DNA of 6,423 bases from a virus (lineage: Duplodnaviria > Heunggongvirae > Uroviricota > Caudoviricetes), in IMG/VR virus record IMGVR_UViG_2541047819_000001, positions 1 to 6,423 of that record. One strand, given 5' to 3'. Below are positions 1-6,423 of this stretch, piece after piece. How positions within the stretch are numbered: position 1 is the stretch's first letter; each line of letters starts with the position of its first letter. Made by a program: the position numbers and the translations under genes. Below the pieces are notes generated by a model, which worked only from the letters and a program-made list of their open reading frames with translations, was not told the origin of the DNA and did no database searches.

Positions 1-105
1 AAAGACGGTAAGAAAATTGATTATCCGGCGCGTCCTCTGCTCGGCTTTACCGGTGAGGATGTGCAGATGATTGAAGAGATTATCCTGGCTCACCTCGACC
101 GTTAG
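1..105 (+). CDS. 3' end of an upstream phage late gene (34 codons, ...EDVQMIEEIILAHLDR*); occupies the S/orf30 slot that precedes V in P2-like genomes; product not identified
   Basis: Frame 1 is open from the window edge to TAG at 103-105, same strand as the tail operon. I do not recognise the C-terminal peptide, so the product is left open. Confidence 0.5.
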   Translation, partial: KDGKKIDYPARPLLGFTGEDVQMIEEIILAHLDR

Positions 106-106
106 T

Positions 107-122
107 TGTGCCATTCCTGACA
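107..122 (+). promoter_or_regulatory. Candidate late-promoter activator dyad (TGT-N10-ACA) upstream of V; possible PV-type Ogr-dependent promoter element
   Basis: TGTgccattcctgACA lies about 57 bp upstream of the V ATG. P2 late promoters carry a TGT-N12-ACA dyad near -55 (from memory); the spacer here is 10, not 12, so this is tentative. Confidence 0.25.
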
Positions 123-137
123 CCTCATCGTCACATT

Positions 138-159
138 GCCGCCGGTATGACCCGGCGGC
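138..159 (+). other. GC-rich hairpin (8-bp stem GCCGCCGG / CCGGCGGC, 6-nt loop) between the upstream gene and V
   Basis: Perfect inverted repeat at 138-145 and 152-159. No clear T-tract follows (atccttcccgtt), so it is not a typical intrinsic terminator; it could be a weak terminator or an RNA-stability or regulatory element. Confidence 0.3.
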
Positions 160-171
160 ATCCTTCCCGTT

Positions 172-807
172 ATGAACACTCTCGCAAATATTCAGGAACT
201 CGCGCGCGCACTGCGCAACATGATCCGCACCGGCCTTGTCGTCGAAACCGACCTTAACGCCGGTCGCTGCCGTGTGCAGACCGGCGGCATGTGCACTGAC
301 TGGCTTCAGTGGCTGACCCATCGTGCCGGTCGTTCGCGCACATGGTGGGCACCTTCCGTGGGGGAGCAGGTGCTGATTCTGGCCGTGGGCGGTGAACTCG
401 ACACGGCGTTCGTTCTGCCGGGGATTTATTCCGGCGATAACCCCGCGCCGTCTGCGTCGGCGGATGCCCTGCATATCCGTTTCCCTGACGGGGCGGTGAT
501 TGAATATGAACCTGAAACCAGTGCACTCACGGTAAGCGGAATTAAAACGGCCAGCGTGACGGCTTCTGATTCTGTTACTGCCACGGTGCCGGTGGTCATG
601 GTGAAAGCATCAACCCGCGTCACCCTGGACACACCGGAGGTGGTCTGCACCAACAGGCTGATTACCGGCACGCTGGAAGTGCAGAAGGGCGGGACGATGC
701 GCGGCAACATTGAACACACCGGCGGTGAACTCTCATCAAACGGTAAGGTACTGCATACCCATAAACACCCCGGCGACAGCGGCGGCACAACCGGGAGCCC
801 TCTATGA
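172..807 (+). CDS. V: Baseplate central spike protein gpV (211 aa)
   Basis: Length matches P2 gpV and the N-terminus MNTLANIQELARALRNMIRTG agrees with my recollection of it. Gly/Ser/Thr-rich C-terminal region ends in an HTHKH His motif. First gene of the V-W-J-I-H-G order. Confidence 0.92.
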   Translation: MNTLANIQELARALRNMIRTGLVVETDLNAGRCRVQTGGMCTDWLQWLTHRAGRSRTWWAPSVGEQVLILAVGGELDTAFVLPGIYSGDNPAPSASADALHIRFPDGAVIEYEPETSALTVSGIKTASVTASDSVTATVPVVMVKASTRVTLDTPEVVCTNRLITGTLEVQKGGTMRGNIEHTGGELSSNGKVLHTHKHPGDSGGTTGSPL

Positions 808-1151
808 CAGCGCGTTATCTCGGAATGAATCGCAGTGATGGCCTGACGGTCACTGACCTTGAGCATATCAGCCAGAGTATCGGCGATATCCTGCGCACAC
901 CGGTCGGCTCACGGGTGATGCGTCGTGATTACGGCTCGTTGCTGGCGTCAATGATTGACCAGCCGCAGACCCCGGCGCTTGAGTTGCAGATTAAGGTCGC
1001 CTGTTACATGGCGGTGCTGAAATGGGAACCCCGCGTCACGCTGTCATCTGTCACCACGGCGCGCAGTTTTGACGGGCGAATGACGGTCACGTTAACCGGC
1101 CAGCACAACGACACCGGCCAGCCACTTTCGTTAACCATCCCTGTGAGTTGA
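804..1151 (+). CDS. W: Baseplate wedge protein gpW (115 aa), gp25-like
   Basis: Length matches P2 gpW. The GSRVMRRDYGSLL motif resembles the gp25/GPW family signature. ATG overlaps the V stop (ATGA). Confidence 0.9.
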   Translation: MTARYLGMNRSDGLTVTDLEHISQSIGDILRTPVGSRVMRRDYGSLLASMIDQPQTPALELQIKVACYMAVLKWEPRVTLSSVTTARSFDGRMTVTLTGQHNDTGQPLSLTIPVS

Positions 1152-1155
1152 AACC

Positions 1156-2064
1156 ATGCCGATTATCGACCTGAACCAGCTACCCGCACCGGATGTGGTC
1201 GAGGAGCTGGACTTTGAAACCATTCTCGCCGAACGCAAGGCGACACTGATTTCCCTTTACCCGGAAGACCAGCAGGAGGCGGTCGCCCGTACCCTGACGC
1301 TGGAATCTGAGCCTCTCGTCAAACTGCTGGAGGAAAATGCTTATCGTGAGCTTATCTGGCGTCAGCGTGTGAATGAGGCTGCACGGGCGGTGATGCTGGC
1401 CTGTGCAGCCGGTAATGACCTTGATGTGATTGGTGCCAATTACAACACCACGCGCCTGATTATCACCCCGGCAGATGATTCGACCATCCCGCCGACACCG
1501 GCAGTGATGGAATCTGACACCGATTATCGTCTGCGTATTCAGCAGGCGTTTGAAGGTTTAAGCGTCGCCGGGTCGGTGGGTGCCTATCAGTATCATGGTC
1601 GCAGTGCGGACGGGCGTGTCGCGGATATCTCTGTCACCAGTCCGTCTCCGGCCTGTGTCACCATCTCTGTGCTGTCACGTGAAAATAACGGCGTCGCATC
1701 CGAAGACCTGCTGGCTGTGGTGCGTAACGCCCTTAATGGCGAGGACGTCAGGCCGGTGGCCGACCGCGTGACCGTGCAGTCTGCCGCCATCGTTGAATAC
1801 CAGATAAACGCCACGCTGTATCTTTACCCTGGTCCCGAAAGCGAACCCATTCGCGCTGCCGCCGTGAAAAAACTGGAAGCGTATATCACGGCACAGCACC
1901 GGTTGGGGCGCGACATCCGTCTGTCTGCCATTTATGCCGCTTTGCATGTGGAAGGCGTGCAGCGTGTCGAGCTGGCTGCACCGCTGGCCGACATCGTGCT
2001 CAACAGTACGCAGGCGTCTTTTTGTACCGAATACCGCGTCGTGACCGGAGGCTCGGATGAGTGA
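1156..2064 (+). CDS. J: Baseplate wedge protein gpJ (302 aa), gp6-like
   Basis: Length matches P2 gpJ and the position follows W. A GTGAG Shine-Dalgarno-like sequence sits about 8 nt upstream of the ATG. Confidence 0.92.
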   Translation: MPIIDLNQLPAPDVVEELDFETILAERKATLISLYPEDQQEAVARTLTLESEPLVKLLEENAYRELIWRQRVNEAARAVMLACAAGNDLDVIGANYNTTRLIITPADDSTIPPTPAVMESDTDYRLRIQQAFEGLSVAGSVGAYQYHGRSADGRVADISVTSPSPACVTISVLSRENNGVASEDLLAVVRNALNGEDVRPVADRVTVQSAAIVEYQINATLYLYPGPESEPIRAAAVKKLEAYITAQHRLGRDIRLSAIYAALHVEGVQRVELAAPLADIVLNSTQASFCTEYRVVTGGSDE

Positions 2065-2587
2065 TTCGCGCCTGCTGCCGACCGGCTCATCACCGCTTGA
2101 AGTCGCCGCCGCAAAAGCCTGTGCGGAAATTGAAAAAACGCCGGTCAGTATTCGTGAGCTGTGGAACCCGGACACCTGCCCGGCAAATCTGCTGCCGTGG
2201 CTGGCGTGGGCGTTTTCGGTTGACCGCTGGGATGAAAAGTGGCCGGAAGCAACAAAACGCGCCGTTATCCGCGATGCGTATTTCATTCACTGCCATAAAG
2301 GCACTATCGGTGCAATCCGGCGTGTGGTGGAGCCGCTCGGCTATCTCATTAACGTAAAGGAATGGTGGGAGACAAACGACCCGGCCGGAACCTTTCGCCT
2401 TGATATTGGCGTACTGGAAAGCGGTATCACGGAAGAGATGTATCTGGAAATGGAACGGCTGATTGCCGATGCCAAACCCGCAAGTCGCCACCTTATCGGT
2501 CTGAACATTATCCAGGACATTCCCGGCTATCTGTATACAGGCGGTGTGGTCTGTGATGGTGATGTTATTACTGTTTATCCCGGATAA
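2057..2587 (+). CDS. I: Baseplate/tail protein gpI (176 aa)
   Basis: Length matches P2 gpI. GGAGG lies 5 nt upstream of the ATG, and the start overlaps the J stop by 8 nt. Confidence 0.9.
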   Translation: MSDSRLLPTGSSPLEVAAAKACAEIEKTPVSIRELWNPDTCPANLLPWLAWAFSVDRWDEKWPEATKRAVIRDAYFIHCHKGTIGAIRRVVEPLGYLINVKEWWETNDPAGTFRLDIGVLESGITEEMYLEMERLIADAKPASRHLIGLNIIQDIPGYLYTGGVVCDGDVITVYPG

Positions 2588-2597
2588 GTGAGAAACA

Positions 2598-5120
2598 ATG
2601 AGCACGAAATTTAAAACCGTTATCACTACTGCCGGAGCCGCAAAGCTGGCAGCCGCCACTGTCCCCGGCGGGAAAAAAGTAAACCTGTCTGCAATGGCCG
2701 TGGGTGACGGTAATGGCAAATTGCCGGTGCCGGATGCCGGTCAGACGAAACTGGTGCGTGAAGTCTGGCGTCACGCTCTGAATAAAGTCAGTGTGGATAA
2801 CAAGAATAAAAACTATATCGTGGCTGAACTGGTTGTTCCGCCAGAAGTGGGCGGCTTCTGGATGCGTGAGCTTGGTCTGTATGACGATGCCGGAACACTG
2901 ATTGCGGTATCCAACATGGCAGAAAGCTATAAGCCAGAACTGGCTGAAGGCTCCGGACGTGCGCAGACCTGCCGCATGGTTATTATTCTCAGCAACGTGG
3001 CGTCCGTTGAGCTGAGTATTGATGCCAGCACAGTGATGGCGACGCAGGATTACGTCGATGACAAAATCGCAGAGCATGAGCAGTCCCGCCGCCATCCTGA
3101 CGCCACGCTGACAGAAAAAGGTTTTACTCAGTTAAGCAGTGCAACAAACAGCACCAGTGAAAAGCAGGCTGCAACGCCAAAGGCAGTAAAAGCAGCCTAT
3201 GACAATGCTGAGAAACGTCTGCAGAAAGACCAGAACGGTGGCGATATTCCAGATAAGGACGCTTTTCTGGACAATGTTGGCGTTACCAGCCTGACGTTTA
3301 TGAAAAACAACGGCGAAATGCCGGTTGATGCTGATCTGAATACATTTGGTCCCGTTAAGGCTTATCTGGGGATCTGGTCTAAAGCTACTTCAACTAACGC
3401 AACACTGGAGAAAAATTTCCCGGAAGATAATGCTGTCGGTGTGCTTGAGGTATTCAATGGCGGTAATTTTGCAGGAATGCAGCGTTATACCACCAGAACA
3501 GGCAATGTTTATATGCGCAACCTTTCTGGCACCTGGAATGGCTCAGACGGTCCGTGGAGCTACTGGCGTCAGATTCAGTCAGCAACACGCCCTTTGAGTA
3601 CGACTATAGACCTGAATACGCTTGGAGCCGCCGAACATCTTGGTTTATGGCGTAACAGTAGCTCGGCTATAGCTTCATATGAACGCAATTATCCAGAGGA
3701 AGGCGGCTTTGCTCAGGGGATGCTTGAGATCCTCGAAGGCGGAAATTATGGAAGAACGCAACGTTATACCACTCGCCGTGGAAATATGTATGTCCGCTGC
3801 CTTGCGGCAAGCTGGGATGCATCAAATCCGCAGTGGGAACCGTGGTTAAGAGTCGGTCATCAGTCAGAGAGTCGTTATTACGAAGGTGATTTAAATGTTC
3901 TAACCGACCCCGGTATTTACAGTGTTACAGGAAAGGCAACAAACGGTCCGATGCTGGACACCGTTGGCGCGACACTACTTGGGATACTGGAAGTAATCAG
4001 ACGTTTTGATGGTGTGTCTGTCTGGCAGCGTTACACAACCACAGGGAAATCAGAAACTACACAGGGACGCACTTTTGAGCGCGTCTACGCCGGGAGCAAA
4101 TGGACCGAATGGCGAGAAGTATATAACTCCTTTTCGTTGCCTCTGAATCTGGGCATCGGTGGCGCAGTGGCAAAACTATCCAGTCTGGACTGGCAGACCT
4201 ACGATTTTGTGCCGGGCAGTCTGATAACCGTGCGGCTTGATAACATGACCAACATTCCCGACGGTATGGACTGGGGCGTCATTGATGGCAACCTGATAAA
4301 CATCGCAGTTGGTCCGAGTGATGATTCCGGTACGGGGCGCTCAATGCATGTATGGCGCAGCACTGTAAGTAAAGCGAACTACCGCTTTTTTATGGTGCGT
4401 ATTTCAGGAAATCCGGGAAGCCGCACGATCACGACAAGACGTGTGCCAATTATCGACGAAGCTCAGACATGGGCGGCGAAACAGACATTCAGCGCCGGTC
4501 TTTCAGGCGAACTGTCCGGCAATGCGGCTACAGCTACAAAGCTGAAAACGGCACGAAATATTAATGGTGTCAAATTTGATGGCACCGGCGATATAAATAT
4601 TAATACGCTGGTATCCCGGAATCGCGTCACAGCATTAAGCGGGAGTGCAAAGGGGACGCCTGGTATTCAGATGTATGAGGCATATAACAATGGCTACCCT
4701 TACACCTATGGCAATGTGCTTCATCTTACGGGGGTGTCCGCAGTTGGAGAAGGTGAATTACTTATCGGCTGGAGCGGCACCAGTGGAGGTTACGCGCCAG
4801 CATATATCCGTTCAAGGCGGGATACAGATGATGCTCAATGGTCTGGATGGGCGCAAATTTATACGACAGCTCATAAACCATCGCCAGGTGATATTGGCGC
4901 TTATACCAAGGCGGAATGTAATTCACGTTTTATTACAGGTATTCGCTTAGGTGGTTTGTCATCCCTTCCAACGTGGAATGGTACTGGCTGGCATGACAGG
5001 TCAGGGCATGTTCTTACTGGTGTTGTCAATAGTAATACTGATGAATTAATTGATATCGCGCAGGCAAGACCTGTTCAGTATTGTATTAATGGCACATGGT
5101 ATAACGCAGGGAGTATTTAA
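2598..5120 (+). CDS. H: Tail fibre protein gpH (840 aa), mosaic: conserved P2-H-like N-terminal attachment domain, three tandem ~92-aa repeats, conserved fibre junction motif, divergent C-terminal receptor-binding tip
   Basis: Single uninterrupted ORF in the H position. N-terminus [20 protein letters not shown]... is typical of P2-like fibre proteins. The motif [31 protein letters not shown] matches the conserved tail-fibre junction seen in P2 H, lambda Stf and Mu S. Confidence 0.92.
3333..4127 (+). repeat. Three tandem protein-level domain repeats (~92 aa each) inside H, with shared motif DLNxL...G-x-LE[IV]...QRYTT...W..W
   Basis: Repeat units start at 3333 (DLNTFGP), 3609 (DLNTLGA) and 3888 (DLNVLTD). 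A QRYTT core recurs at about 3478, 3757 and 4026. The copies are diverged at DNA level and similar mainly as protein. Confidence 0.7.
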
Positions 5121-5650
5121 TGATGATGCATTTAAAAAATATTAAGGCAGGGAATCCAAAAACTATTGAACAATATGAATTAACCAAACGATTTAATATT
5201 GTCTGGCTATGGTCAGATGATGGTAAAAACTGGTATGAGGAACAAAAGAATTTCCAGCCAGACACTTTAAAAATGGCCTACGACGAGAACGGTATTATTC
5301 GTTGCATTGAGAAAGATGTGTCAATGCTCAACCCTGATGGCTTGAGTGTTGTTGAGTTACCGAATATAACCGCCAACCGTCGCGCTGATATTTCAGGTAA
5401 CTGGATGTTCAAAGATGACACTGTAATTAAACGTGTATATACGGATGCAGAACGGCAGCAGCAAGCCGAAGTCCGAAAGTCAACCTTGCTTGCAGAAGCT
5501 GAGGCATTGATTCAGCCGCTGGAGCGTGCGGTCAGGCTGAATATGGCAACAGATGAGGAGCGCAGCCGACTGGAGGCATGGGAACGCTACAGCGTTCTGG
5601 TCAGTCGTGTGGATCCTGCAAATCCTGAATGGCCGGAACTACCACAATAA
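5120..5650 (+). CDS. G: Tail fibre assembly chaperone gpG (176 aa), Tfa family
   Basis: Length is close to P2 gpG. C-terminus [26 protein letters not shown] resembles the lambda Tfa C-terminus (...LEAWKKYRVLLNRVDTS..EWP..P, from memory). ATG overlaps the H stop (TAATG); GGGAG lies about 8 nt upstream. Confidence 0.9.
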
Positions 5651-5655
5651 ATACA

Positions 5656-5682
5656 GGCGGGCGGATTGCCCGCCTTTTCTTT
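5656..5682 (+). terminator. Rho-independent terminator downstream of G
   Basis: Stem GGCGGGC (5657-5663) pairs with GCCCGCC (5668-5674) around a 4-nt loop, followed by TTTTCTTT (5675-5682), 6 nt after the G stop codon. Confidence 0.7.
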
Positions 5683-5779
5683 ATCTGTTGTTTCATCCCC
5701 TGACCAGTCAGGACAAATAGCGTCTCACGCCCTGTACAACTGAAAATACCACTCACCCATTAACCACGGAGTTAAACGG
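5683..5779 (+). promoter_or_regulatory. Candidate late promoter region for the FI operon (PF-like), containing dyad CCTGAC-N2-GTCAGG at 5699-5712
   Basis: In P2 a late promoter (PF) precedes FI. A dyad lies about 74 bp upstream of the FI ATG and GGAG sits at 5767-5770. I could not find an exact TGT-N12-ACA match, so the assignment is positional. Confidence 0.3.
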
Positions 5780-6423
5780 ATGAGTGATTATCATCACGGT
5801 GTGCAGGTGCTGGAGATTAACGACGGCACCCGCGTCATTTCCACCGTATCCACCGCCATTGTCGGCATGGTCTGCACGGCCAGCGATGCGGATGCGGAAA
5901 CCTTCCCCCTCAATAAACCGGTGCTGATTACCAATGTGCAGAGCGCAATTGCAAAGGCCGGTAAAAAAGGCACGCTGGCGGCATCGTTGCAGGCTATCGC
6001 CGACCAGTCAAAACCGGTCACCGTTGTCGTGCGTGTGGAAGACGGCACCGGCGACGACGAGGAAACGAAACTCGCGCAGACCGTTTCCAATATCATCGGC
6101 ACCACCGACGAAAACGGTCAGTACACCGGACTGAAAGCCCTGCTGGCGGCGGAGTCAGTAACCGGTGTTAAACCGCGTATTCTCGGCGTGCCGGGACTGG
6201 ACACCAAAGAGGTGGCTGTTGCACTGGCATCAGTCTGTCAGAAGCTGCGCGCTTTCGGGTATATCAGCGCATGGGGCTGTAAGACCATTTCCGAGGTGAA
6301 AGCCTACCGCCAGAATTTCAGCCAGCGTGAGCTGATGGTCATCTGGCCGGATTTCCTCGCATGGGATACGGTCACCAGTACCACCGCCACCGCGTATGCC
6401 ACCGCCCGTGCGCTGGGTCTGCG
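5780..6423 (+). CDS. FI: Tail sheath protein gpFI, 5' portion (214 codons, continues beyond window)
   Basis: ATG at 5780 with a GGAG RBS; the frame stays open to the window end. N-terminus MSDYHHGVQVLEINDGTRVISTVSTAIVGMVCTASDADAETFPLNKPVLITNVQSAI agrees with my recollection of P2 sheath protein FI. Confidence 0.9.
   Translation, partial: MSDYHHGVQVLEINDGTRVISTVSTAIVGMVCTASDADAETFPLNKPVLITNVQSAIAKAGKKGTLAASLQAIADQSKPVTVVVRVEDGTGDDEETKLAQTVSNIIGTTDENGQYTGLKALLAAESVTGVKPRILGVPGLDTKEVAVALASVCQKLRAFGYISAWGCKTISEVKAYRQNFSQRELMVIWPDFLAWDTVTSTTATAYATARALGL

Follow-up and report, generated by a model that had tools for sequence, protein, structure and literature searches.

The mosaic construction of tail-fibre genes has been known as a principle since the early 1990s, and the classic references are reportedly Haggard-Ljungquist et al. 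1992 and Sandmeier et al. 1992/1994. The described systems that come closest to the locus presented here are gpH and gpG of phage P2 (NC_001895), the S and S' proteins of P1, and S' and U' of Mu, the G(-) fibre (PDB 8ju3). We have analysed a window of 6,423 nucleotides, positions 1 to 6,423 of the IMG/VR virus record IMGVR_UViG_2541047819_000001, which comprises late genes of a P2-like prophage in the order V-W-J-I-H-G-FI. The subject of this study is a conserved linker motif of 31 amino acids in the tail fibre H encoded by this window (840 aa, 2598-5120): it occupies H residues 641-671 (nt 4518-4610) and, like all features of H and G discussed below, lies on the plus strand. Our work supports the idea, to which we give a probability of roughly 75%, that this motif forms the left border of a host-range cassette that can be exchanged and that was built by recombination. 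The window is a new combination within long-known tail-fibre mosaicism, and as such it will not surprise the specialist.

The comparison with the known systems shows how the different parts of the locus have different relatives. P2 has the same gene order, and it resembles the window in the N-terminal part of H (residues 1-204; 84% identity of the protein and 92% of the DNA) and in the C-terminal domain of G (78%). However, the H protein of P2 (669 aa) lacks the motif, its similarity to the window stops at nt 3203, and P2 carries fun(Z) between G and FI. Moreover, the C-terminal 250 aa of P2 H are only 21% identical to those of the window, in agreement with an earlier note on this DNA, made from the sequence alone, in which the downstream tip was judged to be unlike that of P2. 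In P1, S and S' contain the motif twice each, and it is followed by a homologue of the module that also follows it in the window (module B, 4611-4860; it spans H residues 672 to ~755 and is of the type seen in the proximal domain of P1 Sv/Sv'). In contrast to the window, P1 and a P1-like contig have an invertible segment with its alternative arm and a cin gene, and their cix site precedes the motif by 36 codons. With Mu S'/U', the window shares the last 105 aa of H (H 736-840 versus Mu S' 385-488; 71% identity, which does not permit inferring the receptor specificity of Mu G(-)), including the identical final 11 aa, as well as the N-domain of G (78%). Unlike H, Mu S and S' are devoid of the motif, the gix site of Mu corresponds to H residues ~207-232 and thus lies near the break of the P2 homology at nt 3203, the middle of S' is replaced in the window by module B, and the C-domain of the window G is not U'-like. 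Finally, the T-even gp37 proteins of the T6, RB32 and fPS-90 type carry the motif at 60-73% identity, and fPS-90 gp37 also has the shaft module (52% over H 168-660); there, however, the motif is found upstream of the shaft module, near the N-terminus, and T4 gp37 has no copy at all.

The similarity of the window to related phages and prophages breaks off within the motif, at a boundary that we designate J1. The DNA of the Yersinia phage vB_YpM_22 is 96.6% identical from nt 1 to 4565, and then nothing aligns again until 5085; for P24A7b, the similarity breaks at 4583. With representatives of five other tail types, the sliding-window identity is 90-100% up to ~4548, drops to 60-73% over 4548-4593, and is random after ~4600. 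Among the complete E. coli genomes, 393 records match window positions 4100-4900, only 6 of which cover at least 80% of this interval, and in an evenly spaced sample of 60 rows the similarity ends at 4550, 4553, 4565 or 4583 in all but one (59/60). The same was observed for 80 IMG/VR loci that were picked by an identity of at least 88% over H 601-668 (the shaft set): their similarity ends at 4565 (33 loci), at 4582-4585 (34 loci) or at 4594 (4 loci), i.e. in 71 of 79 cases. Thus, the identity among related prophages does collapse at the motif, and the check proposed in the earlier note turns out in its favour. What follows the motif in the 76 loci with complete tails falls into 7 mutually unrelated clusters of 152-260 aa: collar-domain tips (36), a type like the middle of Mu S' (28), the type of the window (5), module B with a different tip (4), the Mu S type (2), and two singletons. 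This sharp boundary, with unrelated C-terminal types behind it, is what was expected from the proposal of the earlier note that the motif is a likely recombination seam.

The boundary is also seen from the other side. In 80 IMG/VR loci that were picked by the motif and the first 10 aa after it (the cassette set), the match to the window sets in at 4461-4518 for 63 of the 65 non-truncated loci, and the unit of motif plus module B is preceded by 7 different upstream families, including the P1-type Sc with cix and Mu-type sequences. The end points of the shaft lineage and the start points of the cassette lineage overlap in one patch of about 100 bp that is common to both (4461-4583). This crossover zone was delimited with DNA end points, since the BLAST end points of the homologous proteins (up to 490 aa, many of them partial) were too fuzzy for a histogram. 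A seam located 100 aa past the motif, as suggested by a tblastn search of H against P2-like phages that reached residue 768, was considered and rejected: The extension is a low-identity artefact running through W..YTT.KP..GD.GA, and on pairwise inspection the identity collapses at residues 653-668.

The 31-aa string quoted in the earlier note matches H 641-671 exactly. Its pattern can be written as N-A-x-T-A-x-K-L-x-T-A-R-x-I-x-G-V-x-F-D-G-[ST]-x-x-I (~30 aa), and the positions G16, N17, A18, T20, A21, K23, L24, A27, I30, V33, F35, D36, G37 and I41 are conserved in at least 90% of the sequences of our alignment (A1). A tblastn search with the 31 aa (E<=1e-3) hit 428 of 50,697 phage records at 564 places, nearly all of them in annotated tail-fibre genes. 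Since such a peptide alone matches so many phage records, and mostly in tail-fibre genes, the motif is not a chance string. The hosts of the motif-bearing phage records include Escherichia, Yersinia, Shigella, Acinetobacter, Pseudomonas, Aeromonas, Shewanella and Synechococcus, and in IMG/VR 375 stretches match the motif. A search of the literature for the motif string did not reveal any relevant paper.

The motif had been described in the earlier note as a block shared by the otherwise unrelated fibres P2 H, lambda Stf, Mu S and T4 gp37. That unrelated fibres share it holds true, whereas the list of carriers given there is largely wrong, because a direct test did not detect the motif in the reference proteins P2 H, lambda orf401/orf314 (Stf), Mu S/S' and T4 gp34-gp37. 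In addition to P1 S and S' and the gp37 proteins mentioned above, it is present in many Peduovirus H proteins, e.g. those of vB_YpM_22 and P24A7b, and in some Mu-like S proteins. What the window H truly has in common with P2 H, Mu S, P1 S and lambda orf401 is a block at residues ~116-229, which holds the PF03406 repeat and an NG(A/G)DIP box. Within the motif, the first half (641-653) goes with the shaft, and variation in the second half (654-668) follows that of the module behind it. A second copy of the motif is found directly before the shaft module both in the Sv' arm of the P1-like contig and in gp37 of the Tequatrovirus fPS-90, and the motif therefore marks module borders generally. H 641-671 is best explained as one instance of an inter-module linker that is widespread in phage fibres.

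The ~170 aa downstream of the motif had been regarded as a single receptor-binding tip. This view has to be given up: They consist of two modules that are separated by a second seam, J2 (..QIYTTAHKP.., 4855-4879, H residues 753-761). Around module B, P1 S shows 61% identity over H 615-788 and Sv' shows 56% over H 615-821. In a profile comparison, module B aligns with the penultimate domain of Mu S' (residues 323-413, PDB 8ju3), and module B together with the motif forms a unit that is placed mid-protein in several large PHROG fibre families. At J2, the DNA similarity of Mu and P1 S' to the window starts at 4855/4858, matches of the S'/U' type in E. coli begin at 4855-4914, and loci that have J1 and module B cease to match at 4864-4879 in 51 of 72 cases. 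Seven different families follow module B, several of which open with another copy of the motif. Behind J2 lies module C (4880-5117, H residues ~762-840), a chaperone-dependent tip of the Mu S' type that ends in INGTWYN. A search of the tip against known structures recovered the tip of Mu S' (PDB 8ju3, E 9e-46), and a Pfam search gave no match in the 169-aa tip.

Module C is directly followed by gene G (5120-5650), which encodes a tail-fibre assembly chaperone of 176 aa (PF02413, Caudo_TAP, E 7e-35; phrog_136, E 1e-78). This protein is chimeric: Residues 1-97 are 78-79% identical to U' of Mu and P1 (the N-domains of U and of P2 G reach 71-72%), whereas residues 98-176 are 78% identical to P2 G and only 37% to U'. 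The corresponding DNA seams are located inside G at 5417-5470, and the window is collinear with S'-U' of Mu and P1 over 4855-5470. A chimeric G with a U'-like N-domain fits the roles described in PMC9608196 (citing North et al. 2019) for tail-fibre assembly chaperones (Tfa), in which binding of the fibre tip is assigned to the variable N-domain and trimerisation to the conserved C-domain. The homology to P2-like DNA (92-93%) resumes at 5653-5656, at a terminator-like hairpin after G (5655-5675) that forms the right edge of the variable region, and the exchanged unit extends through G to the G stop codon. The GC content is about 52% in module B, falls to 33-42% over 4900-5300, and is back at 53-55% in the 3' half of G. 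The trough itself (33-34% at 5000-5300, as compared to 52-60% elsewhere) covers the 3' end of H (40 codons) and the 5' end of G (60 codons) and is consistent with a foreign origin of the unit of tip and chaperone N-domain.

Two further observations concern the borders of G. Many E. coli and phage matches to G start within the last 12-17 codons of H (5067-5085, H residues 824-830); the conserved extreme C-terminus of H would thus act as an extra junction, so that some exchanges may replace G alone. Between G and FI, only ~130 nt are left (5651-5779). This seems to be a variable cargo slot that is empty in the window prophage, and it is occupied by fun(Z) in P2, by a 1.1-kb open reading frame (ORF) in vB_YpM_22, and by three small ORFs in P24A7b.

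At the other end of the shaft, there is an upstream seam at 3203-3277 (H residues 202-227): The DNA homology to P2 stops at 3203, and the P1-like invertible arm and other loci resemble the window from 3277 onwards. The stretch of 20 aa in between aligns with Mu KDRNGADIPNKPLFIQNLGL, which carries gix; despite this correspondence to the gix region of Mu S, no gix sequence was found in window 3203-3277. The shaft contains two tandem repeats of ~95 aa that were detected by local alignment (3303-3872, H residues 236-330 and 331-425; z = 34 versus shuffles), and with a weaker third repeat the region extends to ~4200. Prophages that have the same tip differ most in these repeats (62-90% identity versus 98-100% for the tip), which suggests extra exchange or conversion among the repeats. 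For module B as a candidate fourth copy of the shaft repeat, pairwise tests gave no support (z ~2).

The motif is conserved at the level of the protein rather than of the codons. The first motif half is 88% identical to that of distant carriers at the amino acid level, but the codons for identical residues are the same in only 31% of the cases, as compared to 43-58% in the flanks. The longest exact DNA runs between the P2-like and the Mu-like versions are 11-14 bp, in a patch of ~80% identity. The low codon identity and the short exact runs show that the conservation reflects a protein constraint. The motif profile matches residues 98-134 of the Dec protein of phage L (E 0.002; NAETADKLSTARTI...FDGSANVTI; PDB 6e3c). 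In Dec, these residues form the C-terminal spike that holds the trimer together and that folds only upon trimerisation (PMC11398494). Dec is, however, a capsid protein rather than a fibre, it has an insertion of 11 residues in the motif, and the structure of the spike has not been solved experimentally. It is tempting to speculate that the motif works as a splice signal at the protein level, i.e. as a portable adaptor that trimerises by itself and through which any two fibre modules become compatible. We put forward this reading only tentatively, as well as its extension to the Peduoviridae, the P1-like phage-plasmids, the Mu-like and T-even phages, and the myoviruses of Pseudomonas and Acinetobacter.

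On our preferred reading, the seams define a cassette that starts midway through the motif (nt ~4550-4598) and ends with the G stop codon and the terminator (5650-5675). In the window this cassette is a composite of module B (P1 Sv type), the seam at 4855-4879 and module C (Mu S' tip type), the latter inherited together with the fibre-binding N-domain of G, whereas the C-domain of G is of the P2-G/U type. For the exchange, we infer general and probably short-homology ("relaxed") recombination between co-resident phages or prophages that acts within the ~100-bp patch at 4461-4583. This patch may stay similar because the peptide is constrained, and the peptide may be constrained because it is a self-contained trimerising element; junctions in the linker would survive because both flanking modules can still fold. 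Module C and G would then determine the receptor.

Do the seams need homology in the motif DNA at all? Illegitimate or microhomology-based exchange might take place anywhere in H, with selection retaining only those junctions that lie in the linker, so that the DNA of the motif would be irrelevant. This would agree with the 31% codon identity of the first motif half across lineages, with runs of exact identity between donor-type and recipient-type sequences of just 11-14 bp, and with the absence of a Chi site from the window. Nevertheless, we consider it unlikely, as the end and start points overlap in a single ~100-bp patch of ~80% identity, which is what relaxed homologous recombination needs, and as such recombination between phages and defective prophages is documented (PMC3945230). 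Far less can be said for the idea that nothing was exchanged and that the region behind the motif diverged in place under diversifying selection for host range. Receptor-binding fibre ends are known to evolve quickly; however, the tails differ in length (152-260 aa) and even in domain family (collar versus Tfa-dependent tip), the GC content falls from ~52% to 33%, and P1-like and Mu-like elements that are unrelated in their upstream parts harbour relatives of the window's tail at 75-91% DNA identity. On the sequences at hand, these cassette relatives and the tail clusters effectively refute divergence in place. A recombinational origin of the cassette, as we propose, has its own difficulties, and the following points weigh against it. 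The E. coli and IMG/VR records descend from a few events and represent only ~6-7 independent tail types, and the sharpness of J1 therefore reflects a fixed boundary rather than 59, or even dozens, of independent crossovers. The shared patch is short and, being only ~80% identical, a poor substrate for RecA, which makes homology-driven exchange plausible and nothing more. The match to Dec is weak, and the AlphaFold2 (AF2) monomer model of H 626-840, based on an alignment of 56 sequences, has a mean pLDDT of 55 and provides no reliable structure of the motif. Moreover, the allele of the window is itself collinear, at 96-100% across the motif (3677-5077), with an arm of a P1-like invertible segment.

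This last point deserves attention since the closest relatives of the cassette outside of the P2 group all sit in invertible segments, i.e. in P1, in a P1-like phage-plasmid and in a Mu-like prophage. An invertase crossover site had been expected near the motif in systems of the Mu/P1 type, and this is indeed the case: In P1, the cix crossover (YLGL/RELG) is located 36 codons upstream of the motif, and in the Mu-like metagenome prophage L169, which is collinear with window 4481-5470 (77.6%), gix is located 37 codons upstream of it. L169 as well as the P1-like phage-plasmid contig UViG_2802429224_000004 (L009/L089, 95 kb) carry an invertase and an alternative arm; in the contig, the invertase is of the Cin type and cixL is identical to that of P1. 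The cassette might thus have been captured, or might still be moved, by an invertase of the Din family (Gin, Cin or Pin) that acts at a cryptic crossover site near the motif. We regard this as very improbable. A scan of the window against four 26-bp gix/cix reference sites gave a best match of 15/26, no better than shuffles (mean maximum 15.7-15.8), and the window has neither a serine invertase gene nor an inverted alternative Sv'/U' arm. Both are also absent from the syntenic E. coli PEC41 prophage, where, as in the window, G is followed by the terminator and FI. The earlier note, which had seen no gix/cix-like site and no invertase gene, was correct on both counts. In addition, the similarity to the Mu-like arm starts 85 nt downstream of its gix rather than at gix. 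A much stronger competitor is the possibility that the allele of the window is parental at J1, and that 3277-5470 moved as a whole between the invertible C segment of a P1-like element and a P2-like H-G region, by crossovers at ~3277 and at ~5470 or 5077, whereas the J1 seam arose in other P2-like lineages. The Sv' arm of the P1-like contig (L009 1025-3989) is 91.5% identical to window 3277-5470, and unbroken at the motif within the nearly identical central part; three quarters of H and half of G are therefore also one arm of an invertible segment, and the J1 crossover may lie in lineages other than that of the window. On the other hand, the direction and the order of the events are unreadable from these data, and in comparison with distant carriers the first motif half clusters with the shaft DNA of P2-like phages, and module B is the partner of the second half. 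We would give a parental allele somewhat less than even odds; it is compatible with, and does not contradict, a seam at the population level. Our preferred explanation, the recombination-built cassette with the motif as its left edge, refers to the population of P2-like prophages.

The assignment of H as a P2-type tail fibre is based on its ORF, on Pfam matches and on its neighbourhood: PF12571, the N-terminal tail-collar fibre domain that provides baseplate attachment, covers residues 1-151 (E 4.9e-57), PF03406 covers residues 170-210, a Caudo_TAP gene adjoins, and the order V-W-J-I-H-G is followed by FI. The other genes of the window are V (172-807), W (804-1151), J (1156-2064), I (2057-2587) and the sheath gene FI, which starts at 5780 and continues beyond the end of the window. 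Outside of the variable part, the DNA is 92-97% identical to P2-like phages, and the PEC41 prophage is 96.3% identical over the full window. The NCBIfam search gave no match for H or G. NCBI designates a 99%-identical protein (P0001) as a pyocin-fibre knob domain protein; in a Foldseek search of the PDB with the low-confidence AF2 model, only 8ju3 was significant and the pyocin fibres (6cl5, 6cl6) matched with E 0.3-0.56. No structural conclusion was drawn from the AF2 monomer or from the Foldseek result. A small reverse-strand ORF that overlaps the motif (4463-4630) is unsupported and was taken as spurious. Finally, the 3' part of gene V (window 601-800), which encodes the C-terminal end of the baseplate spike, is only 76% identical to the PEC41 prophage, as compared to 96-98% in the neighbouring regions, and seems to be a further local mosaic patch.

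The range of bacteria open to attack by a phage, or by a delivery particle derived from one, is set by the ends of the fibres. Our analysis maps a natural cut point to codons ~651-668 of H and also identifies the cargo that has to go with it: everything up to the G stop codon, or at least the tip and the N-domain of G. It moreover shows that the distal "tip" consists of two separately exchangeable modules. This may be of practical use for the construction of chimeric fibres based on P2/P4 and for the prediction of the host range of prophages from their sequence. If the motif should indeed be a self-trimerising adaptor, it would provide a general and predictable cut point for chimeric fibres, and the N-domain of the cognate chaperone would be the sole other requirement.

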